Notes: a model not told the origin generated them from the sequence alone. Shown: positions 11,859 through 55,658, numbered from the stretch's first letter. The stretch is 64,000 nt of DNA from an uncultured bacterium (GCA_964585945.1 CAZPGB010000006.1:7724-71723), one strand, 5' to 3'. A program made the numbers and translations.

Positions 11859-12716
11859 TCAGCGTTGCCATCCGAACCGCTCCACCATGGTCCGGTAGCC
11901 GGGCTCGGATCCCTCCGGATAGCGCGCCTTCCAGCGCCGGTAGATCGCGCGCAAGCGGTCCGGAGAAGCATCCTCCTCCAGCAGGGGCGCCAGCGTCGAT
12001 AGGAGGAAGTCGGAGTCGGCATAGCTGAAGTAGGCCCACGAGAGAATGGGGCTCGCGCTCCAGCGCGCCTGATAGACGCGGTCGCCGTCGGACGCCAGCA
12101 TGGCGATCAGGTGCTGTTCACCGTCGATGAAGAGCGAGAGCCACTGCACCGCCCAGCGGCGCAGGAGATCGGCGCTGCTGCGGTTGAGGATCACGTCGAC
12201 CCCGCTCACGTCCGCGGGCTCGTAGACCTGCACCGCCAAGCGCACCCCGCGTCGAACCGCGGCGCGAATCTCATCCTCGAGCTGGCGCAAGGGCTCGGGA
12301 AAGAGATCCAGGAACCCGACCTCGCGGCTACCCCTCAGCATCTGCCGGCACCGGCTGTAGACCTGGTCCACCGTCTGCAACGCGTAGACCCGACTGTCGT
12401 CGGGTGAGCACCCCAGTTCCCGCACCGCTTCGGCCACCTGGGCCCGTTGCTCCTGAAACCGATGGGCCATCTGCTCGAGCAACTCATCCGGGGGAACCGC
12501 TCGGCACAGGCGGGCGTCTCCGTCGTCCACGAGGATGGCGCCCTTGGCCTGCAGGGAAGCCAGGGCTTTGTAGGTGTTCGTCTTCGACCGGCCGATCCCC
12601 TTGGAGATCTTGTAGCCGGTGGCAGGGGAGTGCTGGATGAGAAAGACGTAGATTTCGGCCTCGAGCTGGGTGAGCCCGATGTCGCGGAAGAGACGCACGC
12701 ATTCACTCGATCCCAT
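11859..12716 (-). CDS. TrmB-family winged-helix transcriptional regulator (paralogue 1)
   Basis: N-terminal TrmB HTH: IGLTQLEAEIYVFLIQHSPATGYKISKGIGRSKTNTYKALASLQAKGAI. Start taken at the internal Met (MGSSE); ORF start 12773 is the alternative. 34-40% identical over its full length to the 13301..14170 protein. Confidence 0.65.
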   Translation of the reverse strand: MGSSECVRLFRDIGLTQLEAEIYVFLIQHSPATGYKISKGIGRSKTNTYKALASLQAKGAILVDDGDARLCRAVPPDELLEQMAHRFQEQRAQVAEAVRELGCSPDDSRVYALQTVDQVYSRCRQMLRGSREVGFLDLFPEPLRQLEDEIRAAVRRGVRLAVQVYEPADVSGVDVILNRSSADLLRRWAVQWLSLFIDGEQHLIAMLASDGDRVYQARWSASPILSWAYFSYADSDFLLSTLAPLLEEDASPDRLRAIYRRWKARYPEGSEPGYRTMVERFGWQR

Positions 12717-13300: not shown

Positions 13301-14170
13301 TCACGTGGAATTCCCTGCACTGCCTGCGAAACGTTGCTGCATATCTCGAAAGCCGTTGGAAATGAAAGCCGGGAAGGCCTCCGTCCAATGGCGATACTCC
13401 TCGCGCATCTCGGCGCTGCCGGCGCCGGCCTCCATCAGGTTGACCAGATCATTGGCCAGCAGCGTCCACTTCGCGTAGCTGGCCTGGCCCCAGGAGAGCA
13501 GCAGGCTGGCCGTCCACACCCCCTGGTGCAATCGCTCCTCGCTGCGGTCGAGGGCGGCCAGCAGGCTTTCGCGCCCGTCGGTGAAGACCGACATCCAGGA
13601 GATGGGCAGCATCTGCTCGGTCTGCTCGCTGCCCACCGCCACCGTGGTGCGCACCCCCGGAATCTGCGTCGGCTCGTATGCCATCAGCAAGACGCGCACA
13701 CCCCGGGCCGCGGCCTTGCGGATGTCTTCCCGAAGCTGTGCGAGCGGTCCGGGAAACAGGTCCAGCACGGCGATCGAGCGGCACTCGGCCAACATGATCC
13801 GGGCGCGCTCGAAGACCTGGGCGGCCGTGGTCAGACGGTAGACGCGCTCGTCGCTCTCGGACGGGATCAGGTCGCGCAACGATGCGCTGGCTTCCTGCCG
13901 CTGCCGGCCGAAGTCGCGCTCCAACCGGTCGAGCAGCTCCTCGGGCGCAATCGCCCGGCATTGACGCCCTTCGGCGTCATCGACGACCACCGCGCCGCGG
14001 GCCTGGAGAGAGGCCAGGGTCTTGTAGGTCGCGCCCTGGGTACGGCCGATCGCCTTGGCGATCGCGTATCCGGTGGCGGGTGAGTGCTGCACGAGGTGAA
14101 CGTAAACCTCGGCCTCGACTCGCGTAAACCCTAGTTTTTCAATGGCTTTCACGCCCGCCTCGGTGCTCAA
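13301..14170 (-). CDS. TrmB-family winged-helix transcriptional regulator (paralogue 2)
   Basis: TrmB HTH: LGFTRVEAEVYVHLVQHSPATGYAIAKAIGRTQGATYKTLASLQARGAV. TTG start at 14170 with GGAGG 3 nt upstream. Confidence 0.7.
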   Translation of the reverse strand: MSTEAGVKAIEKLGFTRVEAEVYVHLVQHSPATGYAIAKAIGRTQGATYKTLASLQARGAVVVDDAEGRQCRAIAPEELLDRLERDFGRQRQEASASLRDLIPSESDERVYRLTTAAQVFERARIMLAECRSIAVLDLFPGPLAQLREDIRKAAARGVRVLLMAYEPTQIPGVRTTVAVGSEQTEQMLPISWMSVFTDGRESLLAALDRSEERLHQGVWTASLLLSWGQASYAKWTLLANDLVNLMEAGAGSAEMREEYRHWTEAFPAFISNGFRDMQQRFAGSAGNST

Positions 14171-14516: not shown

Positions 14517-16703
14517 CTAGAACTGGATCCCCACGTAGTAGCCCGGCCACACGCGCACCCAGGTGCGGTCGCTCTTCTCGTCGTGCCAGAGGTCGCCGCC
14601 CACCAGGTCGCCGCCGTCGTTGCGCCGCGAGGTGAAGACGTTGACCGTGGCGCCGGCCGTGAGGGCCAGGCGCGGCGCGATCCGCCAGCCGAAGCCCACG
14701 CGGCCCTTGTTCAGCAAGTGCAGGTCGCGGTCGGATCGCTGGTCGCCCTCGCGCTCGTCCTCGAAGATGTAGTAGGAGAGCGCCTCCACCGTGCCGAAGA
14801 CCGACCCGCTCAGCGGCACGTGGGCGCCCCAGCCGAAACCGGCCAGCCACCGCTCGTTCTCTCCCGGTGACTCGACGCCCCCGGCGAAGATCGAGTAGAT
14901 GCTGCGGTTGCCGAGCTGCACGCCGACCATCGGGCCGCCGGCGTCGGTGTGCCACACGGCGGGGCGATGCCGTCCCCGTTGCACCAGGCTGAGCACCCCG
15001 ACCGGAGCGCCGGCGACATCTTGGGCGACGTTGAGGACGCCGATCTGCGCGCCCGAGACCGTGCGCGCCACATTGACCACGCCGATCTGCGCACCTTCGG
15101 CGTGGCCACTCACGTTGACGACGGAGAGCTGGAGTCCCCGCAAGGAAGGGGCGTAGTTGCCCAGCCCGCTGGCCTGCACGCCTTCGCAACGACCCAGGCT
15201 GATGCTGGCCAAGCCGGCCCCCTGGAAGAAGCCGACATCACCTTCCACGACGTTGAGCGCCCCCCACTGCATGCCCTGGAATGCGCCGCCGATGGAGTTG
15301 GCCAAACCCGCCCATTGGATCGCGCGCACATCCCCGCGGACACGGTTGATCAGACCCGAGAACTGCGCCCCTTCGAGGTCGCCCTCGACCAGATTGAGGC
15401 CGCCGGCGATCTGCAGGCCGTCGACGTTGCCCAGGTTCCAGTTGCCGACGTAGCCGATCTCGAAGCCGTTGACACCCGCGTTGCGTCCGAGGGTCAGATT
15501 GAGTGAGATGTCGCTCACGGTGCGCTCCGCCTCGGGCCCCGCGGTGCTCATGCCCGGCCACAGGCTGGCGGTGAAGTCTCGGTGAAGGACCTGGGTCTCC
15601 TCGATCGTTGCCTCGGGGGTGGGTGGGAACTCGCCGCGCGCGGCGGTCGCCTCGGGGGTCATCGGGATCAGATCGGCCATCTCCAGCCGCGTGAGCCCTT
15701 CCTCGGGCAGGTGGATCGCAGCGGTGTAGTAGCGACCGTCGTGGTCGAGAAAGACGCGGTAGTCGCCGGCATCCAAGCCCAGCTCGATGTGCCGTCCCTG
15801 GGGCTTGTGCAGCTCCACCACCAGAGCGTCCTGCGCGTCGCGCACGTGGAGGCGACCCTGCACCGATTCGGTCAGCACCAATCCGGCGCTGCTCGTGCGC
15901 AGATCGGTCATCACCAGATCGCCGGCGCCGACCATCTGGATGTCGTACCCGGGATGCTGGGGTCCGCTGAGCGTGCCCTCGGTGCGGGCGAGGGTGGTGT
16001 GAAAGGCGAACTGGTAAGCCTCGTTCAGCGTCACGCGCCGGTCCTGGGTGACGTCGGCCGCTCCGCGCAAACCGGTGACCAGGGCGTGGGTGAAGAAGCT
16101 GCCGCGGATGCGGTCCGATTCCTGCGCCGCCTCGTCGTGGGAGCTGGAGGTGAGGAACGCATGGCCCTTCATCTTGGCCGACGCGTCCATCAGAAACGGC
16201 GGTCGCCGGCGGCCCCCTTTCAGCCGCGTGAACGCGCCCGAGGCGCAGCTATCCAGGATGATGATCCGCACGTCGGCCGACACGGCGTTCACCGCCGCGC
16301 GCAAGTCGGTATAGGACAGGAGCTCCTCGCCCAGCCGCAATCCTTGGTCGTCGGAGTGTCCGGAGTAGTAGAGAATCAACTCCACGCGGCTGTGCTCTCG
16401 GGCGGCCGCGGCGATGCGGCCCTCGAGCTCGCCGAGCGACTGTCGCAGCGCCGCCGGTCCGGCGTCGAGCAGCAGCAGCCGGTCTTCGGGGTCGACGCCG
16501 CCCAGGTTCTCGAATACCCGCGCGACCGTCTGCGCGTCGGTGGCGGCGTAGTGCAGCGTGACCCGATTCGCCCCGCCGTCGTTGTTGCCCAGCGCCAGGA
16601 GGAAGCGGCGCACGGAGAAGACCTCGTCCTGTTCCTGGGCGCCGGCCGGCCCCCAGAGGGCCGCCCACAGCAGGGCCGACGCGATGCAGAGCAGACGCTT
16701 CAT
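14517..16703 (-). CDS. exported peptidase C14 (caspase/orthocaspase-like) domain protein with C-terminal Gly-rich 14-residue repeat domain
   Basis: Signal peptide MKRLLCIASALLWAALWGPAGAQE. Catalytic dyad context ILYYSGHS and IIILDSCASG. The C-terminal half carries repeats GAQIGVVNVARTVS / GAQIGVLNVAQDVA / GLQLSVVNVSGHAE. The start overlaps the upstream gene stop (ATGA at 16700-16703). Confidence 0.8.
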   Translation of the reverse strand: MKRLLCIASALLWAALWGPAGAQEQDEVFSVRRFLLALGNNDGGANRVTLHYAATDAQTVARVFENLGGVDPEDRLLLLDAGPAALRQSLGELEGRIAAAAREHSRVELILYYSGHSDDQGLRLGEELLSYTDLRAAVNAVSADVRIIILDSCASGAFTRLKGGRRRPPFLMDASAKMKGHAFLTSSSHDEAAQESDRIRGSFFTHALVTGLRGAADVTQDRRVTLNEAYQFAFHTTLARTEGTLSGPQHPGYDIQMVGAGDLVMTDLRTSSAGLVLTESVQGRLHVRDAQDALVVELHKPQGRHIELGLDAGDYRVFLDHDGRYYTAAIHLPEEGLTRLEMADLIPMTPEATAARGEFPPTPEATIEETQVLHRDFTASLWPGMSTAGPEAERTVSDISLNLTLGRNAGVNGFEIGYVGNWNLGNVDGLQIAGGLNLVEGDLEGAQFSGLINRVRGDVRAIQWAGLANSIGGAFQGMQWGALNVVEGDVGFFQGAGLASISLGRCEGVQASGLGNYAPSLRGLQLSVVNVSGHAEGAQIGVVNVARTVSGAQIGVLNVAQDVAGAPVGVLSLVQRGRHRPAVWHTDAGGPMVGVQLGNRSIYSIFAGGVESPGENERWLAGFGWGAHVPLSGSVFGTVEALSYYIFEDEREGDQRSDRDLHLLNKGRVGFGWRIAPRLALTAGATVNVFTSRRNDGGDLVGGDLWHDEKSDRTWVRVWPGYYVGIQF

Positions 16704-17533
16704 GGGCGCGACTCCTTCTTGCGGAGTATCCGGGCGTGTTGGTCGAGGCCGTCGGGCAGCGCGAGCAGATCGTGGGCCGCCCGCTCGGGTGATCGGGCCA
16801 GCTCCCGCGCGGCGGCCAGCACGGCGGCCGCGTCGATCGGACCCTCGGATGTGATCAGAAAGAAGCGCTCGAAGTCGGGCGCATCGTCCAGTTCGTAGGC
16901 ATGGGGCAGAAGCTGCTCGCCGCCCTCGGCGAGCTGGGTCGACCCCCGGGCGGTGGCGGGGAAGTGAAGCACCACCTCGCCCCGGCCGTCGATCGAGAGG
17001 ATCACCGCGTGGCGCGCCGCCAGCGGCACGACGCCGAGCTGCAGCACATCGCCCGCGCGGGCGACGTCCCCATCGGCCAGGGCGTCGAACCCTTCGCCGG
17101 CGCGGCGGTAGAGCCGCAGATGGGTCTCGCCCTTGGCACGGGTCGTCTCGGTCGCGGTTGCGGCGACGGAAGGCGCCTCCGGGACCGGCGGCGTCCGATC
17201 CGGTCGCACCACCAGCAGCAGCAGGACGGCCGCCGCGGCCACGGCCGGCGCCAGCAGCATCCAGCGGGGCGCCTGTCGCGCGGGAGCCGGACCTTCGGCG
17301 GCAGGCGCCGCATCGGCGGCATCGACCCGGCGGGTGACCTCGGCCGCGAAGACCTCGGGCGGCGTGGCCTCCAGGATCTCCTCGTTCGACCGGTGCAGCG
17401 ACTCGAAGCGCTCGCGCAACCGCCGGTCGGTCCGCAAGCGATGAGCCAGCGCCTCCTGCTCGTCCGGCGGCAGCTCCCCCAGCGCATACAGCTCCAGCAG
17501 ATAGGTGGGGACGGCGTTGGGCGCATCGGTCAT
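16700..17533 (-). CDS. putative transmembrane anti-sigma factor
   Basis: N-terminal anti-sigma-like region (YLLELYALGELPPDEQEALAHRL). Single TM (WMLLAPAVAAAAVLLLLVV). An extracytoplasmic domain of about 130 aa. 4-nt overlap with the sigma gene upstream and the caspase gene downstream. Confidence 0.6.
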   Translation of the reverse strand: MTDAPNAVPTYLLELYALGELPPDEQEALAHRLRTDRRLRERFESLHRSNEEILEATPPEVFAAEVTRRVDAADAAPAAEGPAPARQAPRWMLLAPAVAAAAVLLLLVVRPDRTPPVPEAPSVAATATETTRAKGETHLRLYRRAGEGFDALADGDVARAGDVLQLGVVPLAARHAVILSIDGRGEVVLHFPATARGSTQLAEGGEQLLPHAYELDDAPDFERFFLITSEGPIDAAAVLAAARELARSPERAAHDLLALPDGLDQHARILRKKESRP

Positions 17534-18015
17534 GATCCTGCTCCTTCCATCTCGAGCGCCCGGGCGCGCAGCATGCGGAGGCGCTTGCGCACGCCCGACA
17601 CCGAGAGACCCACTTCCCGCGCCACCTGCTCGAGCGTCAGGCCGTCGCGGTAGTGCAGCACGGCGATGAGCCGCGTCGAGGGTCGCTCGCGGCGGAAGAT
17701 CCGATCCAGGCGCAGGCTGGCGAAGATGCCCGCCTCGCTGTCGGAGGCGCAGGCGATGCGCTGGAGCAGCGCGTCGTCGGCGTCTTCAGGATGCCGGCGC
17801 TGAGAGCGCAAGATGTTCAGGCACACATGGGTCGCCATCCGCATCAGCAGTCCCGCCGGCGCGCTGTCGGTCAGGCGGTCCTGGTTGCGCACGAGCTGGA
17901 CGAACACGTCCTGCGCTGCTTCCATCGCCCTCTCCTCGTTGCGCAGCATCTCCCGGCAACGGCGGACCACCATCGGCCCGTAGCGCCGGTACCATGCCTC
18001 GACATCGATCGGCAC
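17530..18015 (-). CDS. ECF (group IV) RNA polymerase sigma factor
   Basis: Sigma70 region 2 (AAQDVFVQLVRNQDRL) and region 4 HTH (LTLEQVAREVGLSVSGVRKRL). GTG start at 18015 after GCAGGAGGGAGG. Confidence 0.85.
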   Translation of the reverse strand: MPIDVEAWYRRYGPMVVRRCREMLRNEERAMEAAQDVFVQLVRNQDRLTDSAPAGLLMRMATHVCLNILRSQRRHPEDADDALLQRIACASDSEAGIFASLRLDRIFRRERPSTRLIAVLHYRDGLTLEQVAREVGLSVSGVRKRLRMLRARALEMEGAGS

Positions 18016-18227: not shown

Positions 18228-18893
18228 TCAGAAGATCTGCCCGATCGCGTCCTTGAAGTCGCGGGTGAGGAACTGCACGCGCCCGATCAGAAGCGAGACG
18301 CGCGCCATGACCGTGTAGCCGAAGGAAGCGCCGAAGCCGGCCATGATGCAGAGCCGCCCGAAGTAGGCGAAGCGGCCCACCGCCCCCTTGTGCTCCACCG
18401 AGAAGAGGAAGAAGACCAGGCAGGCCAGCGTTCCCACGACCAGGAAGATCGCCCCGATCGAGGCGCCCAGGTTGCTCGTGAAGGTGCCGTTGGGATCCAG
18501 CGCGACCAGGCTGCGCACCGTGCCCTCGGTTTGCTGGAGGATGCGCCCCTCGAGCGTGGCCGGGATGCTGAGCCCCGAGCTGGCGCCCAGCAGGAAGGCC
18601 AGCGACCAGCGGCTCAGCCAGCCGTGCTTGGGCGTGAAGCGGGTGAAGAGCAGGATGCCGAAGATCAGGGGGATCAGGTAGTCGTACTTGCCCTGGTAAA
18701 GGATGTTGTCCCAGATCTTGGGCAGGAAGATGTTGTTGTAGTAGGTGATGATGATGAAGCCGACCGAGATGCCGACCGCCAGGTGCTCGGCCATCTTGTA
18801 GAAGGGATTGTCCCGGTAGAGGAAGGAGTAGATGGCCAGGGTGACCAGCCCTGCCAGCAGGGTCCACACGATGTTGAAGCCCCCTGATTCCAT
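18228..18893 (-). CDS. uncharacterised polytopic membrane protein (module gene D)
   Basis: Six predicted TM segments; Phe/Tyr/Asn/Ile-rich. Local GC about 55-58% versus about 70% in flanking DNA. Confidence 0.55.
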   Translation of the reverse strand: MESGGFNIVWTLLAGLVTLAIYSFLYRDNPFYKMAEHLAVGISVGFIIITYYNNIFLPKIWDNILYQGKYDYLIPLIFGILLFTRFTPKHGWLSRWSLAFLLGASSGLSIPATLEGRILQQTEGTVRSLVALDPNGTFTSNLGASIGAIFLVVGTLACLVFFLFSVEHKGAVGRFAYFGRLCIMAGFGASFGYTVMARVSLLIGRVQFLTRDFKDAIGQIF

Positions 18894-18950
18894 CTAGCCT
18901 CTCCTCCGGGCCGCGCACGATGCACGGCGATGCGTCTGCAAGCCGTCCAT

Positions 18951-19793
18951 CTAGGCGCCCCTCCTGCGGGCCGTCAGGTAGGCGACGTTGCCCAGCACGA
19001 TGAACAGGATGATCAGGTAGTGGATCACCTTCTGGGACCGCATGCCGTTGGTCCCGTCGCCCAGCTTGCCCACGCGCTTCTCGTACTCGGCCGCTCCTTT
19101 GAGACCTCCCAGCACGCCCTTGATCTGCCCGCTCTGGTAGAAGGGCTGGATGTCGGCCGTGTAGACGGCCGTGAGACCGGTCAGGACGGTCAGGCCGTAG
19201 CGCGACCCCGGGTAGATCGCCCAGAACTCGCCGACCGCGGTGGACGCCAGGCTGAGCACCGCCGGGATCTGGTCGTAGTTCTGGATGTTCTCCATCATCG
19301 GGATCTCATCGATCGGCGTTCCGTAGTAGTCCTTCGGGAACGTGCGCTTGATGTCCTCACCCATCTGGAGCATGGCCACCGCCGCGTTGGGCTGAAAGCC
19401 CAGGAAGGCCCAGTCGATGTCCCGCTTGCGGTCGTACTGGGCGGCGATCCGCGGCACCACGTCAGCCGCGATGCCGGCCCCCAGGCCGGTGTACTGCAGG
19501 CTGATCACCAGGACACGGATGTTGCGCGAGAAGCAGTGGTGCAGCACGGCCTCGGCCATCGGCGTCAATTCGGCCGAAGCGGCCGGGTCGTAGTCGAAGG
19601 AGAGCAGGAGCGGGTTCGCGTCGGGCTGGATCTGATCGATGATCCGGAAGGTGTCCTCCACCTCGCGGGAGACATCCACGCGGACGGGCGGCCAGGCCAC
19701 GTAGAACGGAATGACCACGCCGATGAACACCAGCGTGAAGATCACCCGTCGGTCCAGCTTGAGCATCCGGTCCAGGAGCGTCGGTGTCTCCAT
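18951..19793 (-). CDS. uncharacterised bitopic membrane protein (module gene C)
   Basis: N-terminal TM (VIFTLVFIGVVIPFYVA), a central soluble domain of about 200 aa, and a C-terminal TM (VIHYLIILFIVLGNVAYL). Confidence 0.55.
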   Translation of the reverse strand: METPTLLDRMLKLDRRVIFTLVFIGVVIPFYVAWPPVRVDVSREVEDTFRIIDQIQPDANPLLLSFDYDPAASAELTPMAEAVLHHCFSRNIRVLVISLQYTGLGAGIAADVVPRIAAQYDRKRDIDWAFLGFQPNAAVAMLQMGEDIKRTFPKDYYGTPIDEIPMMENIQNYDQIPAVLSLASTAVGEFWAIYPGSRYGLTVLTGLTAVYTADIQPFYQSGQIKGVLGGLKGAAEYEKRVGKLGDGTNGMRSQKVIHYLIILFIVLGNVAYLTARRRGA

Positions 19794-19796
19794 CGG

Positions 19797-20432
19797 CTAC
19801 TCCTTCCCGGACCCCAGATAGGACCGCTCGATGCCCATCACCACCTTGAGCGCGGTCGAGGCCATGCCCAGACCCACGCCCAGAATGATCGCCCGCTTCG
19901 CCACCAGGTTGGGGTTGTCCAGAATCCAGCGGGCGATCGCGGGGATGCCCAGGGAGGCGCCCTCGTCGAGCCGGCCGATCATGACGATGACCGCGGCGAT
20001 GAGCAGAATGGTTGCATCGACGCTGCGCGTGCGGAAGGCGCGGAAAGCCGCCGAGGCCAGATAGAAGGCCAGCAGCGAGAACATCGTCGCCTGCACCGGC
20101 AGCAGGATGGCGTTGAAGAGGTCCTGATACAGCGTGCCTTCGCCCCGTCCGCCGATGAAACCGGCCAGGAGCATCACCGTCAGCCCGACCAGCGCGGCCA
20201 GGCTGTAGACCCAGTCCTTGTGCCGCTTGCGCTCGGGCCCCGAACGCTGCACGCGGTGGGTGTGGCGCTGGATGACGCTGGCCAGTCCCAGGATGATCGA
20301 GAAGGCGTAGACGATCTGCATGTAGTCGTTGATGCGGTCGTAGTAGGGCAGGAACGCGGGCACGAAGTACTGGATGGCCATGAAGCTGCCGGCCAGGAAG
20401 CAGATCGTCAGCGGTACGCGCGTCCTCATCAT
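19797..20432 (-). CDS. uncharacterised polytopic membrane protein (module gene B)
   Basis: About 5 TM helices. ATG at 20432 overlaps the stop of gene A (ATGA). The ORF track start 20471 would overlap gene A by 43 nt. Confidence 0.55.
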   Translation of the reverse strand: MMRTRVPLTICFLAGSFMAIQYFVPAFLPYYDRINDYMQIVYAFSIILGLASVIQRHTHRVQRSGPERKRHKDWVYSLAALVGLTVMLLAGFIGGRGEGTLYQDLFNAILLPVQATMFSLLAFYLASAAFRAFRTRSVDATILLIAAVIVMIGRLDEGASLGIPAIARWILDNPNLVAKRAIILGVGLGMASTALKVVMGIERSYLGSGKE

Positions 20433-21679
20433 CCGCCCGACCCCCTCACGCGCAAGATCTCGTTGACCCAAGCGATCGGCTCACCGCGCACCAGCGCGCC
20501 GGCGGTCATCAGGGCCACGCCGACGATGATCATCAGAATGCAGAGCAGCTTGTAGTAGTCCTGCCCTTTCAGGCTGCCCAGCAGCGTCGGCTCGCGGCCG
20601 ATGTAGGCGCTGGCCGCGTAGAGCTCCTCGCCGATGATGGTGTAGTCGCAGGCGGTGACGAAGAAGGGTAGCTGCGTGATGGCGTCGGTGCCGGCGATCT
20701 GGATCGCCCCCACCGAGGCGCCGGTCTCGGCCAGTACGAGCGACTCGGCGTAGAACATCCCCAGCAGCAGATTGGCCCCGGGCCGCTCGCGCACCATCGT
20801 GCCGCAGACGGCCGCCGCGTAGGTGAACTGGTCGTTGGTGACGAAGTAGATGTCCTCGGGCCGGTAGTTGTGGGGGAAGCCGGCGGCGATGAAGGCCTCC
20901 TTGACGACGTCCTGCGTAACCGGATAGACGATCGGGTCGCGGTTGGGAATCAGGATGCGCGCCTGGTAGCGGGCGATCTTCTTGGCCACCTCGGAGAGGA
21001 TGTTGAGCGAGGCGATCGTGGCTACGTCCTGGATGGTGCTGATGCCGGGAATGTAGAGTGTCGGCCGGCCCATCTCGGTGCAGCGCCCGACGGCCTCGTC
21101 GATGGCGTCGAGGCCCGCGATGCGGCGGATCTTGAGCTCGCGACCCCGGCGGGCGACGTGGATGAAGCCCAGGATCATCGCCACGAAGATGATGACCGCC
21201 ACGAGCGTGTTGAGCTTGTTCGTGTAGAACCACTGCCGCGCGGGCGCCACCGGGGCCGAGGGCTCCGTGCTCGCCCGCATGCCGTCGGGACCATGCGTCT
21301 CGATCATGTAGACGTAGCTGCGGCCGGGGCGCAGTCCGGTGTCGTCGTAGCTGAAGCTCTCGGTGCGCAGGCGGGCCGGGAACGACTTCACCACGGCGAA
21401 GCTGTCCACCCCGGGATCCTGCCGCAGGATGACGTAACGGTCGACGGTGGGCGCATCCATCGCGTCACCGGGCGCGCGCCCGAACTGGATGCGCAGCGCG
21501 GTGCCGGCGTCGAGCGGCTTGTCTTCCACGGAGAAACCGGTGACGGGGGCGACGGCCGATGCAACTGCAGCAAGGGGGAGTGCGAGCGCGAGCAGCACCA
21601 AGGCGATGATCTCGGATGTCCGCTGTGTCCGTGCTAGGCCCAAGCCGGTGCGTTCCACGCGCCCCTCGTCCTCCACCAA
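20429..21679 (-). CDS. uncharacterised membrane protein with N-terminal signal/TM, FN3-like beta domain, TM, conserved about 220-aa domain, C-terminal TM (module gene A)
   Basis: TTG/GTG start region at 21659-21679 (RBS GAGGACGAGGGG before the GTG at 21661), so the start is uncertain. Beta-rich segment RYVILRQDPGVDSFAVVKSF...YVYMIETHGPDG. Hydrophobic helices VAVIIFVAMILGFIHV and LLCILMIIVGVALMTAGALV. Confidence 0.55.
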   Translation of the reverse strand: MVEDEGRVERTGLGLARTQRTSEIIALVLLALALPLAAVASAVAPVTGFSVEDKPLDAGTALRIQFGRAPGDAMDAPTVDRYVILRQDPGVDSFAVVKSFPARLRTESFSYDDTGLRPGRSYVYMIETHGPDGMRASTEPSAPVAPARQWFYTNKLNTLVAVIIFVAMILGFIHVARRGRELKIRRIAGLDAIDEAVGRCTEMGRPTLYIPGISTIQDVATIASLNILSEVAKKIARYQARILIPNRDPIVYPVTQDVVKEAFIAAGFPHNYRPEDIYFVTNDQFTYAAAVCGTMVRERPGANLLLGMFYAESLVLAETGASVGAIQIAGTDAITQLPFFVTACDYTIIGEELYAASAYIGREPTLLGSLKGQDYYKLLCILMIIVGVALMTAGALVRGEPIAWVNEILRVRGSGG

Positions 21680-21790: not shown

Positions 21791-24508
21791 TCAGCGCAGC
21801 ACCAACACGCGTGCCCGGGCCGCGCCGCGTGCGCTCTGCCAGTGGAGCCAGTAGACGCCGCCCGGCACGAGATGCCCGCTTCGGTCGTGTCCGTCCCAGT
21901 GGAGGCGGTGCGCGCCGGGGGCCGCGTGCGCGCCGTCGAGAAGCGTAACGATACGCCGGCCGTCGGGACCAAAAAGGGCGAGGGTGCCGCGCGCCTGGGC
22001 GGGCAGGTGGAGCCGGATCGAGGCGCCCGACAGCACCGGGTTGGGGGAGATCTCCAGCCGGGGACCCGCTGCGCGGGCGGTGGGCCCGGCGGGGTCCACC
22101 GCCGGACCTCTCACCCCGGAGGTCGACGGCACACCGGTGAAGGACAGATCGTCGAGATACCAGCCGCGGCGCACGACGTTGCGGTCCGAGCCGAACTGCC
22201 ATCGCAGGCGCACCCACTGTCCACACAGCGCGTCCAGCGCGAAGGTGCGCTCCACCCAGGCGCCGGTCGTGCCGGTGAAGGCCTGCTGGCCGCCGATCGG
22301 GTTGCAGTTGCCGTCGACGATGCCGTCGTAGCCCTCGGCGGGCGCGACCAGGCTCCAGCTCTGGCCGCCGTCGGTCGATGCGCGCAGGTGTCCGCCGTCG
22401 CTGGCCGCCTCGTTCTCATACCAGGTCCAGCAGCGCAGCGTGGCCGCCTCGAAGTGGACCAGACTGAGCGGCGGCGCGTCGAGGCGATCGTCGGCGCAGG
22501 CGTCGTAGTCCTCGCCCAGCACCGTGCCCCAGACCCGGCTCCCTGAGTGGGCGCCGGCCATGGCGTCGCTGCCCCAGGCCCACTCGCCGAACGGGTCGAG
22601 CCCTTCGCCGGAGGTCTCGAAGTCCCAGACGTCGGCCAGGGTGAAGTCGACGCCGTGCGCGGCCTCGCCCTGCGCCAAGAACAAGGTGCGTCCGCGGGGC
22701 ATCCGGTCGGGCAGCGAGGCGCAGAGCGCGAGGGTGCCCGGCCAGACCGGATCGAGGACGTAGACGCCGTCGGGGCCGGTGAGCGCGCTGGCCGTCTGTC
22801 CCTCGATCTCCACCCTGGCGCCCGGCAGGGGTGCGCCGCCGGGCGAGCGCACCGTGCCGCTGAGGCTGCCGGCCACGAGCGGATCGAGCATCAGGTCGAG
22901 CGCCACGACGGCGCCGCCGGTGACGCTCACCATCACCGTGTCGGGCCAGCAGCCGGACGTCCCGGCGACCAGGGTGTACGCGCCGGGAAAGATCTCGCCG
23001 AAGGCATACTGGCCGTCGGCTCCGGTCACCTGCACCGGATACCCGGTGCCCACCAGACGCAGCGTCGTGTTCGACGGATCGCCGCCCCCCGCGATCGACA
23101 CGGTGCCCTGAATGCCGCCGGGGAGGTCCTGCACCTGGGCGAGCTGGGCGGCGGCGATGGCGTTGGTCACCGTGATCTGGCGCCACAGCCAAGGGTCCAA
23201 CCGGTCGACGCGGTCGCAGAACCGGTGGTAGCAGGGGTTGCTGTCCCACTCGTTCTCGATCGACAGCACGGCGGGAAAGCCGTGGTTGTGAAACGGCACG
23301 TGATCGGAGCCGAAGCCTTCGCCGGGATAGCGGTAGATGGTGAGCCCGGCGTGGTCGACCGCGACCTGCTCGAGCAGATCCATCATCCAGACCGAGCTCG
23401 TGCCCTCGTAGAACCCCTCGAGCCAGAGGTCCTCGCCCTGGGGGTCGTGGTAGCCGGTCATGTCCATGTTGAAGACGCCGCGGATGTCCATCCCCTGCAG
23501 CTCGGCCTCCGACGCGAAGTGCTCGCTGCCGTGCAGGCCCTGCTCCTCGGCGGAGAAGCAGATGAAGATGAGGGTGTAGTCGGTCGTCACGGGCGCCAGC
23601 AGGCGCGCGATCTCCAGGACGGCCGCGGCGCCCGAGCCGTTGTCGTCGGCGCCGGGGGCCAGGTTCTGCGGGTCGGGCGAGGTCGAGTCGAGGTGGCCGC
23701 CGACGATGTAGATGCGGTCGGGGTCGACCGCGCCCTCCTTGATGGCGACCACGTTCTTCAGCTCGTACGACATGTAGGTGAACGGATCGAACCAGGCCGT
23801 CAGGCCGGCCGCTTCGAAGGCGGCCTTGGCGTAGGCGCAGGCCAGCTCCATCTGGGGCGTCCAGGAGTGGCGCGTCTGCAGCTCGGTCGACAGATAGTCG
23901 AGGTCGCCGGACATCCGGTCCGCACGCACCGCCCCGGCGAGCGCGCTCCAGAGGTCCCGTGCGGCTCCGGGGAGCGTGCTCATGGGCTCGCCGCGGTCGA
24001 TCGCCTCGGGCGGTCGCCGGGGCACGACGCGCTGGGCCCGGCCTCCGGGGCCCGCCTTGAAGGGCCAGTCGCCCGGGGCTAGCTGCAGCAGGGCCACCGC
24101 GCGGTCCGCATCCAGGACCAGCGGGTCGCGGGGGGGAGGACCGGCGTGGGCAGCGCCGCCGGCGGACCAGCCCGCGGGCCAGACGCCGGCGCGCAGCGCC
24201 TCGAGCTCGCGGTGCGGCACGAGGAGATAGACCGATCCCTCCCGGTGTCCGCCCACCGCCGTGACGGCCGGATCGTCCAGCCACCTGCTGCCGGCCGGCA
24301 GCAGGCCCAGCGAGCGGCCGGCAAAGGTGTGCAGCACTCGCCAGTCGGGCACGTCGCCGGCGGATCCACCCTCCCAAGATGCTACAATAAAATCGTTTAC
24401 GCTTGAATCTTCAGGCTCGGCGCGAGACCCGTCCGCGCTCGCGGCGATGGCGGCCAGGGTCAGCGCAAAGGCCCATGATAGGGCGAGTGTCTTTCGGATC
24501 CAGACCAT
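21791..24508 (-). CDS. secreted M28 family zinc aminopeptidase with C-terminal beta-sandwich/sorting-type domain
   Basis: Signal peptide. M28 motifs IVGGHLDS, DDNGSGAAAVLE, FSAEEQGLHGS, GSDHVPF. CarbopepD_reg-like repeats. A C-terminal segment of about 80 aa resembles FlgD-Ig/T9SS-type C-terminal domains. Confidence 0.8.
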   Translation of the reverse strand: MVWIRKTLALSWAFALTLAAIAASADGSRAEPEDSSVNDFIVASWEGGSAGDVPDWRVLHTFAGRSLGLLPAGSRWLDDPAVTAVGGHREGSVYLLVPHRELEALRAGVWPAGWSAGGAAHAGPPPRDPLVLDADRAVALLQLAPGDWPFKAGPGGRAQRVVPRRPPEAIDRGEPMSTLPGAARDLWSALAGAVRADRMSGDLDYLSTELQTRHSWTPQMELACAYAKAAFEAAGLTAWFDPFTYMSYELKNVVAIKEGAVDPDRIYIVGGHLDSTSPDPQNLAPGADDNGSGAAAVLEIARLLAPVTTDYTLIFICFSAEEQGLHGSEHFASEAELQGMDIRGVFNMDMTGYHDPQGEDLWLEGFYEGTSSVWMMDLLEQVAVDHAGLTIYRYPGEGFGSDHVPFHNHGFPAVLSIENEWDSNPCYHRFCDRVDRLDPWLWRQITVTNAIAAAQLAQVQDLPGGIQGTVSIAGGGDPSNTTLRLVGTGYPVQVTGADGQYAFGEIFPGAYTLVAGTSGCWPDTVMVSVTGGAVVALDLMLDPLVAGSLSGTVRSPGGAPLPGARVEIEGQTASALTGPDGVYVLDPVWPGTLALCASLPDRMPRGRTLFLAQGEAAHGVDFTLADVWDFETSGEGLDPFGEWAWGSDAMAGAHSGSRVWGTVLGEDYDACADDRLDAPPLSLVHFEAATLRCWTWYENEAASDGGHLRASTDGGQSWSLVAPAEGYDGIVDGNCNPIGGQQAFTGTTGAWVERTFALDALCGQWVRLRWQFGSDRNVVRRGWYLDDLSFTGVPSTSGVRGPAVDPAGPTARAAGPRLEISPNPVLSGASIRLHLPAQARGTLALFGPDGRRIVTLLDGAHAAPGAHRLHWDGHDRSGHLVPGGVYWLHWQSARGAARARVLVLR

Positions 24509-24655: not shown

Positions 24656-25744
24656 CTAGAGGAAGGCCCGCAGGCGGCGATAGGTGCCGGGGAAGTACTC
24701 CTCGAAGAGGCGATCCATATCGTCGATCGCCGCCCGCAGCAGGGCCACCTTCTCGTGATAGGGCTGGAAGGCGCTCTTGAAGCCGCTGATCAAGATGCCG
24801 CGCAGGTCGTAGATGCTGAGCTGGAACGTTCGGCAGGCCAGATCCAGCTCCTTGGTGACCGAGGTGTTGGAGACCAGCCGGTTGTCGGTGTTGATCGTCA
24901 CGCGCAGCCCCGCATCGAAGTAGATCCGAAACGGGTGGCTGTGGATGCTGGTGGTCGCCCCGGTCTGCACGTTGCTCGTCAGACACAGCTCGAGCGGGAT
25001 GCGGTGGTCGTTGACGTAGTTCATCAGCTCGCGGTCCTGCCAGAGCAGCGTGCCGTGCCCGATGCGGTGCGCGCCGCAGTAGTGGAGGGCTTGATGGATC
25101 GAGGGAGGTCCGAAGCCCTCGCCGGCGTGGACCGTTCCCGAGATGTTGTTGTTCCGCACGACGTAGAAGGCTTCCCGGTGGTCCTTGGCCGGGAAGTGGG
25201 CCTCCTCGCCGGCCAGATCGAAACCGACGACGCCGTTGTGCTTGTAGGCCACGGTCATCTCCGCCAGCCGCAGGCTCATCTCCGGGGTCATGGTGCGGAT
25301 GCCCGTCAGGATCACGCCCGTGCGAAGCACATAGCGGTCCTCCGCGTCGCGCAGGCCCGACAGCACCGCGTCGACCGCCTGCTCCCAGCTCTGCCCCTGG
25401 GCCTCGTGCAGGGGCGGGGCGAAGCGCGCCTCCATGTAGCGGACGTTCTCCTTGGCCGCGTCCTCGGCCAGCTCGAAGGCCACCCGGCGCAGGGCATCGG
25501 GTGTTTGCAGCACCTTGAGCGTGAGGTCGAAGACGCTCAGGTAGCGCTTCAGGTCCTGGGTGGCCGTCTCCTCCATGTAGCGCACCACGTCCTCGCACGT
25601 CTCGAAGGGCAGCTCGACCTGCTGTTGCCGCGCCAGCTCGAGTAGCGTCTCGGGTCGCAACGAGCCGTCCAGGTGGACGTGCAGGTCGGTCTTGGGCAGG
25701 CGGTGCACGAGCTCGTGGGGTATCTCCATCCTTTGCTCCTTCAA
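24656..25744 (-). CDS. add: adenosine deaminase
   Basis: HVHLDGSLRPETLLELA metal-binding motif. Full-length adenosine/AMP deaminase-family fold signature (SLSTDDP-like region CLTSNVQTG). Confidence 0.9.
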   Translation of the reverse strand: MKEQRMEIPHELVHRLPKTDLHVHLDGSLRPETLLELARQQQVELPFETCEDVVRYMEETATQDLKRYLSVFDLTLKVLQTPDALRRVAFELAEDAAKENVRYMEARFAPPLHEAQGQSWEQAVDAVLSGLRDAEDRYVLRTGVILTGIRTMTPEMSLRLAEMTVAYKHNGVVGFDLAGEEAHFPAKDHREAFYVVRNNNISGTVHAGEGFGPPSIHQALHYCGAHRIGHGTLLWQDRELMNYVNDHRIPLELCLTSNVQTGATTSIHSHPFRIYFDAGLRVTINTDNRLVSNTSVTKELDLACRTFQLSIYDLRGILISGFKSAFQPYHEKVALLRAAIDDMDRLFEEYFPGTYRRLRAFL

Positions 25745-31111: not shown

Positions 31112-32725
31112 ATGACGGCCGAGTCCGGGACCGCCCTGCGCGCCCCCGAGGTGCGGCTCGAGGAGATCACCAAGCGCTTCGGCTCCACGGTGGCCAACGA
31201 TCGGGCCAGCGTCCGTTTCGCGCCCGGATCGATCCACGCGCTGGTCGGCGAGAACGGCGCCGGCAAGTCGACGCTCATGCGGGTGCTCTACGGCCTGCTG
31301 CGCCCCGACGCGGGCCGCATCTGGATCGACGGTGCACCGCGCACCATCGCGTCTCCCGCCCAGGCGCTCGAGTGCGGCATCGGGATGATTCACCAGCACT
31401 TCATGCTGGTGCCGCCGATGCGTGTGCTCGAGAACATCGCCCTGGGCTGCGAGGGGCTACGCGGGCTGCACGCCCTGCCCCGCGCGCGTCTGGCGGCCGA
31501 GCTGCGCCGCCTCTTCACCTCCTACGGCTTCGAGATCGACCCCGAGGCGCCGGTGGCCGCAATGGGCGTCGGCGCGCGCCAGAGGGTCGAGATCGCGCGG
31601 CTGCTCTACCGGGGCGCCCGGGTGCTGATCTGCGACGAGCCGACCGCGGTTCTGGCCCCGCCGGAGGTCGCCTCCTTCTTCGAGAACCTGCGCCGGCTGC
31701 GCAGTGAGGGGCGCACGGTGGTGCTGATCACCCACAAGCTCTCCGAGGTCCTGGCGATCGCCGACCGCGTCACCGTGTTGCGCAAGGGGCGCGTGGTGGG
31801 CGAGATGGAGCGCGACCAGATCCGCCGCGACGCGCTCGTGCAGATGATCATGGGGCCGGCGCGGGCGCAGGTGGACGAGCGGGGCGATCAGCCGACCGTG
31901 CGGGCCACGCCGATCGCGGCCGCGCCGTCGCTGCAGCGCGCGCGCGCGGCGAGCCGGGGCGCGGGACCGGCGCTGCAGCTCCGCCAGATCACGCTGCGCG
32001 GCTCGGGGGGCCGGTCGCTGCTCGAGCGTATCGATCTCGAGGTCGCGCCGGGCGAGATCCTGGGCATCGCCGGCGTGGCCGGCAACGGGCAGAGCGAGCT
32101 GGCCGAGGTGGCCTCCGGGCGCCGAGTCTTCGATGAGGGCGTGCTGCGCGTGGGGGGCTGCTTCTACGAGCCGGGGAAGCTGCCCGCCGCCCGCGAGCGC
32201 CCGTCGCTGATCCCGGAGGACCGCAACCAGGAAGGGCTGATCGGGGCGTTCCGCCTGTGGGAGAACCTGCTGCTGGGGCGCACGGAGGAGGCGCCCTTCG
32301 TGCGGCGGGGGCTCTACGCCCACGGCCCCGCGCGCCGCTGGGCGCGGCGGCAGCTCGAGCGCTTCGCGGTGGCGCCGCCCGACGAGATGCTCGCCGCCCA
32401 CGCCCTGAGCGGCGGCAATCAGCAGAAGCTGCTCTGCGCGCGTGAGCTCACGCGGGGCGGCAGCGTGCTGGTGGCCGCGCAGCCCACCCGCGGCGTCGAC
32501 ATCGCCAGCATCGCGTTCATTCACAGCACGCTGCGCGAGTTCCGCGCGGCGGGCGGCGGGGTGCTGCTGATCTCGGCCGACCTGGACGAGATCCTCGCGC
32601 TGTCCGACCGCGTGGCGGTGCTCTACCGCGGCCGCCTGGGTCGGGCTGAGGCGCGCGCCGATGTGGATATGGAGGGGATCGGCCGGGCGATGGTCGGGTT
32701 GGACGGCTCCCGGCCGGCCGTCTAG
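31112..32725 (+). CDS. ABC transporter ATP-binding protein with two fused ABC domains (nucleoside/sugar type)
   Basis: Two Walker A sites (GENGAGKST; GVAGNGQSEL). Signatures LSGGNQQK, and Walker B (LICDEP, LLISAD). 537 aa. Confidence 0.9.
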   Translation: MTAESGTALRAPEVRLEEITKRFGSTVANDRASVRFAPGSIHALVGENGAGKSTLMRVLYGLLRPDAGRIWIDGAPRTIASPAQALECGIGMIHQHFMLVPPMRVLENIALGCEGLRGLHALPRARLAAELRRLFTSYGFEIDPEAPVAAMGVGARQRVEIARLLYRGARVLICDEPTAVLAPPEVASFFENLRRLRSEGRTVVLITHKLSEVLAIADRVTVLRKGRVVGEMERDQIRRDALVQMIMGPARAQVDERGDQPTVRATPIAAAPSLQRARAASRGAGPALQLRQITLRGSGGRSLLERIDLEVAPGEILGIAGVAGNGQSELAEVASGRRVFDEGVLRVGGCFYEPGKLPAARERPSLIPEDRNQEGLIGAFRLWENLLLGRTEEAPFVRRGLYAHGPARRWARRQLERFAVAPPDEMLAAHALSGGNQQKLLCARELTRGGSVLVAAQPTRGVDIASIAFIHSTLREFRAAGGGVLLISADLDEILALSDRVAVLYRGRLGRAEARADVDMEGIGRAMVGLDGSRPAV

Positions 32726-32757
32726 CGTACAATGCCATCAGGGAGGGGCCCCGACAT

Positions 32758-33802
32758 CGTGGTGCGCTTGCAGAGACTGATTCGGCACGGCTTCCCCGTC
32801 GCCAGCGCGCTGACCGCCGCGGTGCTGCTGGCGATCGCGATCGCCGTGCTGCTGGGTGTCTCGCCCGCGCGGCTGGCCCACACCCTCATCGAGCGCCTGG
32901 GACCGTTCGCCTGGGGCCAGGTGCTCTTTCGGGCCACCTTCCTCACCTTCACCGGGCTCTCGGTGGCGCTCGCCTTCCAGGCCGGTCTGTTCAACATCGG
33001 CGCCGAGGGGCAGGCCGTCGTCGGATCGTTGGGCTGCGCGCTGGTGGGCATCGCCCTGACCGGCTGGCCCGCCTGGATCGTGCTGCCCGCCGCGATCGCC
33101 GGCGCGATGGTGGCGGGCGGCCTGTGGGGCTTCATCCCGGGCTGGCTCAAGGCGCGCTTCGGGACGCACGAGGTGATCAACACGATCATGCTCAACTTCA
33201 TCGCCTTGGCCGGATCGAACTTCTTGATGACCCGCTACCTGGCGCTGCCCGAGACGGTGCGCACCGCCGAGGTGGGCGCCGCGCTGCCGCGCCTGGATGC
33301 GCTGGTGCCCGCGCTGCGCGGCTCGGCGGTCAACGCCAGCCTGGGTCTGGCCGTGGCGGCCGTCGTGGTGGCGCACATCTTCACGCACCACACCGTCGCC
33401 GGCTTCAAGCTGCGGGCCGTGGGGCGCGGGCCGGTCCAGGCGCGCATGGCCGGCATCGATCCCGGGCGGCGCCTGGTGCTGGCCTTCGCGCTGGCCGGCG
33501 CGGCCGCCGGGCTGGTGGGCACCAACTTCGTGCTGGGCTACAAGCACTACTACGAGGACGGCTTCACCGGCGGCATCGGGTTCCTCGGTATCGCCGTCGC
33601 GCTGATCGCGCGCAACGAGCCGCTGGCGATCCTGCCGGCCGCGCTGCTGTTCGGCTTCCTGGCCGAATCGGGATTGGTGGTCAACACCCTGCTGCCGCGT
33701 GAGATGGTGGACGTGCTCACCGGCGCCATCTTGCTCGTCTTCATCGTGGCCGAGCGCATGCGGGCCCAGGGCCTGCGCCGCTTGCGGGAGCCGTCGCGAT
33801 GA
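32758..33802 (+). CDS. ABC transporter permease (nucleoside/sugar type, first membrane subunit)
   Basis: About 8-10 TM helices. Start taken at GTG 32758; the ORF-track start 32732 overlaps the ATPase end. Confidence 0.75.
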
Positions 33803-34722
33803 GTCCGATCGCCCTGGTGCTGTCGCTCATCGCCCAGACGCTGCGCATCAGCGTGCCCTATGCGCTGGCCTCGTGCGGTGGGGTGCTCTCGGAGCGCGGC
33901 GGCGTGGTCAACATCGCCCTGGAGGGCATCCTGCTCAACGGCGCCTTCTGCGCCGTGGTGGGCACCATCTTCACCGGCTCGCCCTACGCGGGCATCCTGT
34001 GCGCCATGTTCGGGGGACTGCTGACGGCCGCCCTGCACGCCCTGGTCACGGTGACGGGCAAGGCCGATCAGATCGTCTCCGGACTGGCGATCAACATCCT
34101 CAGCTTCGGCTTGACGCGGGGAGGGCTGCGGGTTCTCTTCCACAGCGCGAGCAACTCCCCGCGGATCGAGGCCCCCGCGACGCCGTGGACGGAGATGGAG
34201 GCCGGCGTCGTCGGACCGCTGGTCCGGGTGCTGGGCAATCCGCTCTTCCTGCTGACCGTGGCGCTGATTCTGGCGTCGCTCTGGCTGCTGTTCCGGTCCG
34301 GTCTGGGCCTGGCCCTGCGCACGGCAGGGGAGCATCCCGAGGCGGCGCACTCGGCCGGGTTCTCCGTGGCCCGCCTGCGCTGGCTCGGTGTGCTGGCCAG
34401 CGGTCTGCTCGGGGGCCTGGGCGGAGCCTGGCTGGCCTTCGAGCAGCACTCCTTCACCGACCAGATGTCGGGCGGGCGCGGCTACATCGCGCTGGCGGCG
34501 ATGATCGTGGGCAAGTGGCACCCGCTGGGGGCGGCCGCCGCCTGCCTCCTCTTCGGCGCGGCGGAGACGGCCCAGATCCGGCTGCAGGGCAGCGGCGCGC
34601 CCACACAGCTCTTGCAGATGCTTCCGTTTGCGCTGACGATCCTCGTGCTGGTCGTCTGGATCGGACGATCGGTGGCGCCCGCGGCGGTCGGCCGGCCCTA
34701 CGATCCCGAGCAGACCGACTGA
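33799..34722 (+). CDS. ABC transporter permease (second membrane subunit)
   Basis: The ATG overlaps the previous stop (ATGA). Polytopic, with the conserved permease loop region GGLGGAWLAFEQ. Confidence 0.8.
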   Translation: MSPIALVLSLIAQTLRISVPYALASCGGVLSERGGVVNIALEGILLNGAFCAVVGTIFTGSPYAGILCAMFGGLLTAALHALVTVTGKADQIVSGLAINILSFGLTRGGLRVLFHSASNSPRIEAPATPWTEMEAGVVGPLVRVLGNPLFLLTVALILASLWLLFRSGLGLALRTAGEHPEAAHSAGFSVARLRWLGVLASGLLGGLGGAWLAFEQHSFTDQMSGGRGYIALAAMIVGKWHPLGAAAACLLFGAAETAQIRLQGSGAPTQLLQMLPFALTILVLVVWIGRSVAPAAVGRPYDPEQTD

Positions 34723-34761
34723 GCCGCGCCCGCGGCCCGAGGAGAGGCGGATGAGAGGACC

Positions 34762-35586: not shown

Positions 35587-35631
35587 ATCCCCATCCCCGC
35601 CGAGAGCGGGCGTCGAGCCTGCGGGCGCGGA

Positions 35632-51073: not shown

Positions 51074-51082
51074 GAAGAGGAC

Positions 51083-51577
51083 GTGTTCTATCTGCGCTAT
51101 CTGGTGCTCACCTTCGTCGTGCTGCTGCTCGATGCCACGCTGGTCCACCGCCTGGCCATCGGGTCGGTACGGCCCGACCTGGGTCTGGCCCTGGTGGTCT
51201 ACGCGGGACTCGCCGGAGGGGGGCGCGGCGGCACCCTGTTCGGCTTTCTGGTGGGATTGGTGCGCGGCTGCGCGCAGCCGGAGTGGCTGGGTGTCGACGC
51301 GCTGCTGTTCAGTCTGGTGGGGTTCGGGGCCGCCTACACCTCCCCGATGGTGAACCGTGAGCATCCGCTGGTGCAGGCGGGCCTCATCGCGCTGCTGCTC
51401 ATGGGCCACGATCTGCTCCGGGCGTTGATCGTCACGTCGGCGTCGCTGCCGCGCACGCTTCTGCTCTGGCTCAGCGTGTCGCCGGCGGCCGCCCTCTACA
51501 CGGGGCTGCTTGTGCCGCTGGCAGTGGCGCTGCTGCCGCGCGTGCTGATGGGGGACTCGCGGCGTGCCCTTTCCTGA
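51083..51577 (+). CDS. mreD: rod shape-determining protein MreD
   Basis: Small polytopic membrane protein immediately after mreC. GTG start. Confidence 0.75.
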   Translation: MFYLRYLVLTFVVLLLDATLVHRLAIGSVRPDLGLALVVYAGLAGGGRGGTLFGFLVGLVRGCAQPEWLGVDALLFSLVGFGAAYTSPMVNREHPLVQAGLIALLLMGHDLLRALIVTSASLPRTLLLWLSVSPAAALYTGLLVPLAVALLPRVLMGDSRRALS

Positions 51578-54676: not shown

Positions 54677-54760
54677 TCCCCGGTGATGGGCTGGTGATCG
54701 CGGGCCCGCGGCAGGCGGGATCTCAGGCCGAGACGTCTCTGACCGAAGGGAGCGGGCACG

Positions 54761-55606: not shown

Positions 55607-55658
55607 GCGCTAGGGGCTTGCGGGCGCGGCGGCACGCCGCTGGCTGACACGCCGGGTC

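Follow-up and report, generated by a model that had tools for sequence, protein, structure and literature searches.

A stretch of 64,000 nucleotides (nt) from an uncultured bacterium, hereafter the window, was analysed, and the feature under study was a run of four genes, A to D, at positions 18228-21679 on the minus strand. An earlier reading of the sequence, here called the original prediction, had described four consecutive minus-strand genes for membrane proteins at this site, and the open reading frame (ORF) calls bore this out as follows:

20429-21679, minus strand: gene A, ORF of 416 amino acids (aa) from a TTG start (the identical NCBI protein, P0001, has 415 aa)
19797-20432, minus strand: gene B, 211 aa from an ATG overlapping the TGA of A as ATGA (longest ORF, 19797-20471)
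18951-19793, minus strand: gene C, ORF of 280 aa
18228-18893, minus strand: gene D, ORF of 221 aa

The lengths expected for C and D were exact, whereas those given for A (about 410 aa) and B (212 aa) required small corrections; the 211-aa call for B was also found in L081, an independent assembly of the same organism. The coordinates reproduced precisely the junctions that had been described, namely the ATGA overlap of A and B, 3 nt between B and C, 57 nt between C and D and 212 nt from D to the gene of an extracytoplasmic function (ECF) sigma factor. Hydropathy analysis confirmed that all four products are membrane proteins, with three hydrophobic spans in A, about six in B, two in C and about five to six in D. 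Each of them has thousands of homologues, which sets A-D beyond chance ORFs.

The distribution of the four genes was examined by scanning one genome per GTDB species, which returned at least 584 confirmed loci, 80 of which were kept for analysis. These 80 loci span WOR-3, Stahlbacteria, TA06, Latescibacterota, Edwardsbacteria, Fermentibacteria/Hyd24-12, Cloacimonadota, Coatesbacteria, Poribacteria, Planctomycetota and Eisenbacteria. Using the window proteins as queries, tblastn detected A in 80 loci, B in 76, C in 71 and D in 68, while hidden Markov model searches of the ORFs detected them in 80, 74, 69 and 65 loci respectively; the shortfall of B, C and D was mostly accounted for by contig ends. 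The order ABCD on one strand was almost always kept, confirming that A-D are one uncharacterised membrane module whose genes travel together. A single set occurred in 32 complete loci, besides truncated ones, an ABCDABCD arrangement in at least 13, three tandem sets in 3 (L032, L042 and L066) and an AABCD arrangement in a few. The triple sets belong to WOR-3/TA06-type genomes, that of L032 measuring about 2.3 Mb. An apparent A-B fusion in L049 was discarded, a stop codon separating the two genes.

The cassette is present in Planctomycetota, since it is carried by a metagenome-assembled genome of the Brocadiia, where the genes follow one another as A (1277 aa), B, C, D, an OmpA-like gene and a further A (1276 aa) (L084:1022-11831). 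In both Brocadiia A genes the encoded ectodomain, of about 1,000 aa, is built from repeats resembling carbohydrate-binding modules.

When all ORFs of the 80 loci were clustered against one another, wide conservation was seen for A-D alone. Next among the genuine clusters came a MazG-like gene of about 100 aa, which in about 20 of these loci lies immediately upstream of A (for instance L015:7575-7871); this nucleotide pyrophosphohydrolase gene is the single recurrent neighbour and probably reflects lineage synteny. Pfam families were also counted in the two ORFs closest to the cassette on either side (259 ORFs in total, with the top 25 families listed), and in this census MazG was matched by 11 of 150 upstream ORFs and Wzi by 7 of 109 downstream ORFs. 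Neither the clustering nor the census revealed a recurrent partner in the form of an ATPase, a regulator or an outer-membrane protein, and sigma factor, caspase and ATPase families were absent from the families listed for the 259 flanking ORFs. ABCD is an autonomous and native cassette that stands outside any ECF/caspase system.

Gene A encodes a protein with hydrophobic spans at residues 19-51, 151-179 and 372-400, in which a signal or first transmembrane (TM) segment is followed by a periplasmic FN3 domain, a second TM segment, a predicted cytoplasmic domain belonging to the DUF6754 family and a third TM segment. Its two recognisable parts map as follows:

21245-21547, minus strand: FN3 ectodomain of A (residues about 45-145), from profile search and AlphaFold2
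20498-21241, minus strand: DUF6754 core of A (residues 147-394), Pfam PF20539

The FN3-like beta domain suggested for A was substantiated by a profile search against PDB sequences, which matched titin FN3 (E=7e-17) and gave matches in the FN3 part only, and by an AlphaFold2 model showing seven strands at residues 45-145 with a predicted local distance difference test score (pLDDT) of about 90 (85-97). No fn3 entry was reported in the Pfam search of the window protein. The DUF6754 match, with E=7e-114 and 379.7 bits against a cutoff of 27, extends over model positions 2-249 of 257 and comprises the second TM segment, a soluble domain of about 190 aa and the third TM segment. The original statement that no motif could be assigned therefore held as far as ATPase and transporter signatures are concerned, none being detected in A-D, and had to be amended for residues 147-394 of A. 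DUF6754 is, however, a catalogue entry without an assigned function and covers one of the four proteins; no mention of DUF6754, PF20539 or IPR046642 was found in the literature searched.

Conservation is very unevenly distributed along A. Over the 80 loci the median identity to the window protein was 64% in the soluble part of DUF6754 and 25% in the FN3 region. About 90 columns, many of them charged or polar, were invariant in an alignment of 26 sequences from several phyla, and include the motifs GRxTEMG, PN.DP, AESL.LAETG, IQIAGTD, QLPFF.TACDYT and EELYAASAY. So high an identity of the DUF6754 soluble domain between phyla implies an activity that is central and under strong constraint. Its sequence pattern looks like a series of alternating beta-alpha units. 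K/R-rich segments occur after the second and before the third TM segment, and since these flanks accompany an N-terminal signal, the positive-inside rule predicts a periplasmic FN3 domain and a cytoplasmic DUF6754 domain.

More than 7,700 homologues of A were retrieved from a database clustered at 90% identity, the named ones belonging to Candidatus Eisenbacteria (68-79% identical), WOR-3 and TA06. When 1.84 billion representatives were scanned in full with the DUF6754 part, E<=1e-3 was reached by 2,218 clusters (50% identity) and E<=1e-30 by 812. DUF6754 was C-terminal in nearly all of the 150 best matches, in proteins of 292-1341 aa total length. The periplasmic part is the variable part of the family, ranging in relatives from about 10 residues (P0332 and P0320) to about 1,000. 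Longer ectodomains were mostly devoid of Pfam matches, and some contained fn3, HEAT repeats or PQQ/BamB-like beta-propellers; in P0281, about 1,000 aa of repeats look like carbohydrate-binding modules, as judged by reading the sequence and not from a database match.

The structure of C was modelled with AlphaFold2 from 56 homologues, with a pLDDT of 92.8 and a predicted template modelling score (pTM) of 0.89. The model supports the bitopic topology and the soluble core of about 200 aa that had been described: a TM helix at 15-31 is followed by six beta-alpha units, with strands at 62-67, 94-98, 128-133, 179-183, 203-207 and 226-229, and by a long C-terminal helix at 246-279 containing the second TM segment, in line with the hydrophobic spans at 13-39 and 253-276. 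The soluble part is thus modelled as a six-stranded Rossmann-like alpha/beta domain, which is predicted to be periplasmic because a DRR motif is kept before the first TM helix and the C-terminus is R/K-rich.

In Rossmann-like folds the ligand-binding crest usually lies at the C-terminal ends of the strands. Invariant residues of C were located at these ends (D67/P70/E75/P78, G105/G107, D127/G132 and G206/T208), together with Q223/G226/G230/G233/E236-Y237-E238 in the loop GGLKGAAEYE, and they map to the beta1-alpha1, beta2-alpha2, beta3-alpha3, beta5-alpha5 and beta6-alpha6 loops. H258 and N269, also invariant, lie within the second TM helix. C matched no Pfam or NCBIfam entry, its family profile matched no PDB sequence, and a Foldseek search of the model against the PDB returned nothing at E<=1e-3.

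The polytopic nature attributed to B and D agrees with the hydropathy profiles, and both proteins showed a median identity of 43% across loci. B is predicted to have both termini in the cytoplasm and displays the conserved motifs AAYRAFRAR and GIERxWLGG, predicted to be cytoplasmic, while PN.AAKRG is kept before the last TM segment. In D, FSFLYKDNPFYKFAEH is conserved between the first and second TM segments and EHKG after the fifth. The C-terminus of D is Gly/aromatic-rich and carries the conserved sequence MIGFGASFGYTVMARxSLLIGRxQFLL, which could speculatively form a helical hairpin, perhaps re-entrant. The homologues of D, at least 8,000 in the database clustered at 90% identity, are very uniform in length (206-213 aa), are all annotated as hypothetical and have no Pfam domains. 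B, C and D all have conserved charged or polar residues within their membrane spans or close to them; the conserved polar positions include H58, E140 and R181 of B and N29, E36 and Q121 of D, besides H258 and N269 of C.

B and D gave no match in Pfam or NCBIfam, nor did their family profiles in PDB sequences, and 30-32 homologues each of B, C and D, compared with Pfam at E<=1, gave scattered weak matches only. Among these, DUF3704 for D (9 of 32 homologues) and Acyl_transf_3 for B (6 of 30) were weak and were treated as noise. Paralogy within the cassette was likewise rejected as undetectable, both between A and C, which share the succession of TM segment, alpha/beta domain and TM segment (hhalign probability 0.7-4.5%), and between B and D (hhalign probability 1.2-2.8%). 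As regards well-characterised families, none was matched by B, C or D, and A resolved into FN3 and DUF6754.

The base composition of the locus was then evaluated. The A-D region has a guanine-plus-cytosine (GC) content of 65.8% (63.4-67.3% for the single genes) against 69.4% for the window, so that the local drop to about 55-58% in the original prediction was overstated; 58% was reached by one 300-nt stretch only, within D. A dip does exist, but it is modest. For windows of equal length the standard deviation was 1.7%, and the A-D region falls among the lowest 1.5% of them. The richness in F/Y/N/I/K described for the products was verified, these residues amounting to 20-29% in A-D compared with 8-18% over six flanking genes (8-14% in five of them and 18% in the sixth, the ORF at 24656-25744). 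The GC content of third codon positions (GC3) was 91-95% in A-D versus 84-93% in flanking genes, and the GC deficit was confined to codon positions 1 and 2.

Because GC3 follows the genome's own codon preferences, A-D are considered native to the genome, probably that of a Candidatus Eisenbacteria member. The dip in GC results from the amino-acid composition of the A-D products and not from foreign origin; strong structural constraint, one of the two explanations that had been offered for the odd composition, was judged right. A horizontally acquired island of foreign composition would be in keeping with the GC dip itself and with its rank among same-size windows, but is contradicted by a GC3 at or over that of the flanks, by a deficit at codon positions 1 and 2 that tracks the F/Y/N/I/K-rich membrane composition, by a location between an M28 peptidase and a TrmB gene that is common to relatives, and by the failure to find mobile-element genes adjoining A-D. 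We regard such an origin as extremely improbable.

A-D were compared with known membrane systems. ABC transporters have a Walker A/B nucleotide-binding subunit encoded within the operon or beside it; A-D gave no ABC_tran match, no ATPase cluster was conserved in the 80 loci, and the homologues of B and D showed no consistent Pfam match to ABC membrane-domain families. The layout of the TRAP (DctPQM) and TTT (TctABC) systems is closer, as these lack an ATPase and combine an extracytoplasmic alpha/beta binding protein with two membrane subunits; they often occur in several paralogous copies. However, no DctP/Q/M or TctA/B/C match was obtained with A-D and 30-32 homologues of B, C and D, C has a single Rossmann-like lobe held by two TM segments instead of being a two-lobe binding protein, B and D are both about 210 aa long, and ABCD has an additional hyper-conserved cytoplasmic domain.

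The cellulose synthase pair BcsA-BcsB offers a lead more than a test: a cytoplasmic alpha/beta domain lies between TM helices, its periplasmic partner is anchored in the membrane and has a flavodoxin/Rossmann-like domain, and some ABCD relatives have periplasmic modules resembling carbohydrate-binding ones. BcsA-like synthases of glycosyltransferase family 2 (GT2) have a GT-A catalytic domain with DxD and QxxRW motifs. On the other hand, A-D matched neither Glycos_transf_2 nor Cellulose_synt nor PilZ, the QxxRW motif is missing from the invariant columns of A, the DUF6754 soluble domain is about 190 aa long, and the C model had no significant Foldseek match in the PDB. GldG/ABC_transp_aux proteins resemble C in having N- and C-terminal TM anchors around a periplasmic alpha/beta domain, but PF09822 was matched by 0 of 32 C homologues at E<=1, and, unlike GldG/ABC-2 systems, the cassette has no ABC ATPase or ABC-2 permease within it or adjoining it. 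The ion-driven MotAB, ExbBD/TolQR and GldLM stators share with ABCD the character of ATPase-free inner-membrane complexes with periplasmic extensions, but they are two-protein systems, pairing a polytopic MotA_ExbB-type subunit with a bitopic one that has a conserved acidic residue in its TM segment, and the four-protein ABCD matched none of their families. Rnf/Nqr complexes, with their Rnf-Nqr family membrane subunits and bitopic FMN-binding subunit, gave no Pfam or NCBIfam match, and conserved Cys/His cofactor motifs were not found in the A-D alignments. PADLOC defence models returned 0 families for A-D. ABCD belongs to no known system detectable by these searches, although a distant superfamily link could still emerge.

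Taken together, the fixed gene order in 80 loci, the tandem copies and the ATGA overlap with the 3-nt gap, which point to translational coupling, suggest that A-D assemble, as four subunits, into a single self-contained complex of the inner membrane. B and D, with about six TM segments each, would constitute the membrane core. C would present a Rossmann-like ligand-binding domain on the periplasmic face, held by two TM helices, while A would anchor its highly conserved alpha/beta domain to the cytoplasmic side through two TM helices, besides supplying a dispensable, lineage-variable periplasmic adaptor, here one FN3. As to function, our tentative preference, expressed with low confidence, is for an ATPase-free translocation machine, the cargo of which would probably be nutrients or solutes taken up on an ion gradient. 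A small ligand would be captured by C at its beta-sheet crest and would pass through the membrane by way of B and D, to be received, modified or gated by the cytoplasmic domain of A; the tandem paralogous sets of other genomes would be versions with different specificities. An importer was ranked as likeliest because tandem sets of paralogues, when present in small genomes, typically belong to uptake systems.

Several observations weigh against this interpretation. Complex formation and topology were derived solely from operon structure and the positive-inside rule, and A-D show no sequence or profile similarity to transporter families in Pfam, NCBIfam or the PDB. Comparison of the halves of B and of D revealed no internal (inverted) repeat (hhalign probability <=1.5%). 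The AlphaFold2 model of full-length A, built from 26 sequences, has a pLDDT below 50 at residues 179-220 and 286-368, in the most conserved part of the protein. Four loci (L019, L023, L039 and L077) have a solitary A with no B, C or D found, on contigs that run on for 1.5-10 kb past A; these genes are either orphan paralogues using BCD encoded elsewhere or cases of A acting alone. Finally, the joining of a variable ectodomain to a hyper-conserved cytoplasmic domain is seen more typically in receptors or in machines for polymer secretion than in importers of solutes.

Two other functions were weighed against uptake. By analogy of layout with synthase-dependent systems such as BcsA-BcsB, ABCD may be a platform for polymer export or envelope assembly, in which catalysis or loading would fall to the cytoplasmic domain of A and B/D would be the conduit, with C and the A ectodomains guiding a nascent polysaccharide, lipid-linked or protein substrate outward. 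The ectodomains of relatives fit such a role, with their FN3, PQQ/BamB-like beta-propellers and HEAT repeats and, by sequence reading, the repeats of P0281, as do the Wzi capsule-assembly proteins among the downstream ORFs, the OmpA-domain gene adjoining ABCD in Brocadiia and the enzyme-like conservation of the cytoplasmic domain. This reading is given a low probability, somewhat below that of uptake; against it stand the lack of any significant match to glycosyltransferase, acyltransferase, flippase or polymerase families, P0320 and P0332, in which the ectodomain is wholly missing, neighbour associations that are few and lineage-specific, and the presence of up to three tandem sets in the small L032 genome, which is unusual for such machines. 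More doubtful again is a receptor or signalling complex, with A providing a variable periplasmic sensor whose cytoplasmic domain meets a universal partner and B/C/D acting as co-receptor or scaffold. Chemoreceptors and sensor kinases combine a variable sensor with an invariant cytoplasmic module, and A conforms to this pattern in the contrast between its two domains and in carrying DUF6754 at the C-terminus of proteins of widely differing length; the TM-periplasmic domain-TM layout of C recalls sensor domains, and several paralogous sets occur per genome. Nevertheless, no known output domain and no regulator conserved nearby were found, the adjoining ECF sigma factor is not linked to the cassette, members without an ectodomain exist, and two conserved polytopic subunits are hard to account for as scaffolds. 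The data cannot separate the translocator, polymer-export and receptor readings, the translocator being ranked first.

A broader proposal, to which we likewise assign a low probability, is that ABCD, widespread among FCB/PVC candidate phyla, might represent a hitherto overlooked class of membrane machine in which the DUF6754 domain would be the energising or catalytic element in place of an ABC ATPase or synthase domain. Translocation would then proceed through the B/D conduit to or from the domain of C, and swappable A ectodomains would set specificity. Whatever the activity, a fixed four-gene cassette in about 12 largely uncultured phyla, often amplified two- or three-fold, contains three proteins out of four without a Pfam or NCBIfam family. 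Identification of the activity would annotate thousands of genes now called hypothetical, and could reveal a new way to move material or information across the inner membrane.

Finally, the neighbours of the cassette were assigned by Pfam and NCBIfam searches:

17530-18015, minus strand: ECF-type sigma factor, first gene downstream of D
16700-17533, minus strand: anti-sigma factor
14517-16703, minus strand: caspase-domain (Peptidase_C14) protein, 728 aa
13301-14170, minus strand: TrmB-family regulator, after the caspase gene
21791-24508, minus strand: M28 peptidase, 905 aa, with a C-terminal FlgD_ig domain, directly upstream of A

The original prediction had joined A-D to the sigma, anti-sigma and caspase genes in a possible seven-gene envelope system. 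The seven genes do lie on one strand and no consensus terminator was found in the 212-nt gap; no minus-strand terminator-like site was found between D and the sigma gene, the single site detected being on the plus strand within gene A, and the RNA fold z-score of the gap was +1.9. The Rfam scan of the window gave no match, and that of seven loci returned tRNAs alone. The seven-gene arrangement is also repeated in one close relative, L083 (A 80% identical), where the order M28-ABCD-sigma-antisigma-caspase-TrmB is as in the window. Against these points, tblastn found homologues of the sigma, anti-sigma and caspase proteins in 0 of the 80 loci, ABCD has entirely different neighbours in other phyla and contexts, and L082 (A 79% identical) has ABCD followed by a 75-aa ORF and TrmB, without the trio. 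Since the trio is missing from L082 and present in L083, it is recognised as a separate three-gene unit that was inserted between ABCD and TrmB in part of this lineage. The trio is independent of ABCD, and a single seven-gene envelope-stress system is scarcely credible.

A sigma/anti-sigma pair coupled to a caspase-like protease may deserve a separate study. The caspase protein has its Peptidase_C14 domain at the N-terminus, a weak match to the entry "caspase, EACC1-associated type" and LA_2272-type repeats near residue 520. The M28 peptidase also contains CarboxypepD_reg and InhA-like MAM domains, its FlgD_ig domain being a possible secretion or sorting tail; it is present in L083, but its position next to ABCD is not conserved elsewhere. 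A second TrmB-family paralogue, likewise downstream of the caspase gene, was located at 11874-12716 on the minus strand, 42% identical over 281 aa to that at 13301-14170. Elsewhere in the window, positions 32001-37000 and 51001-56000 showed a strongly negative AT skew (-0.17 to -0.26), unlike the rest.

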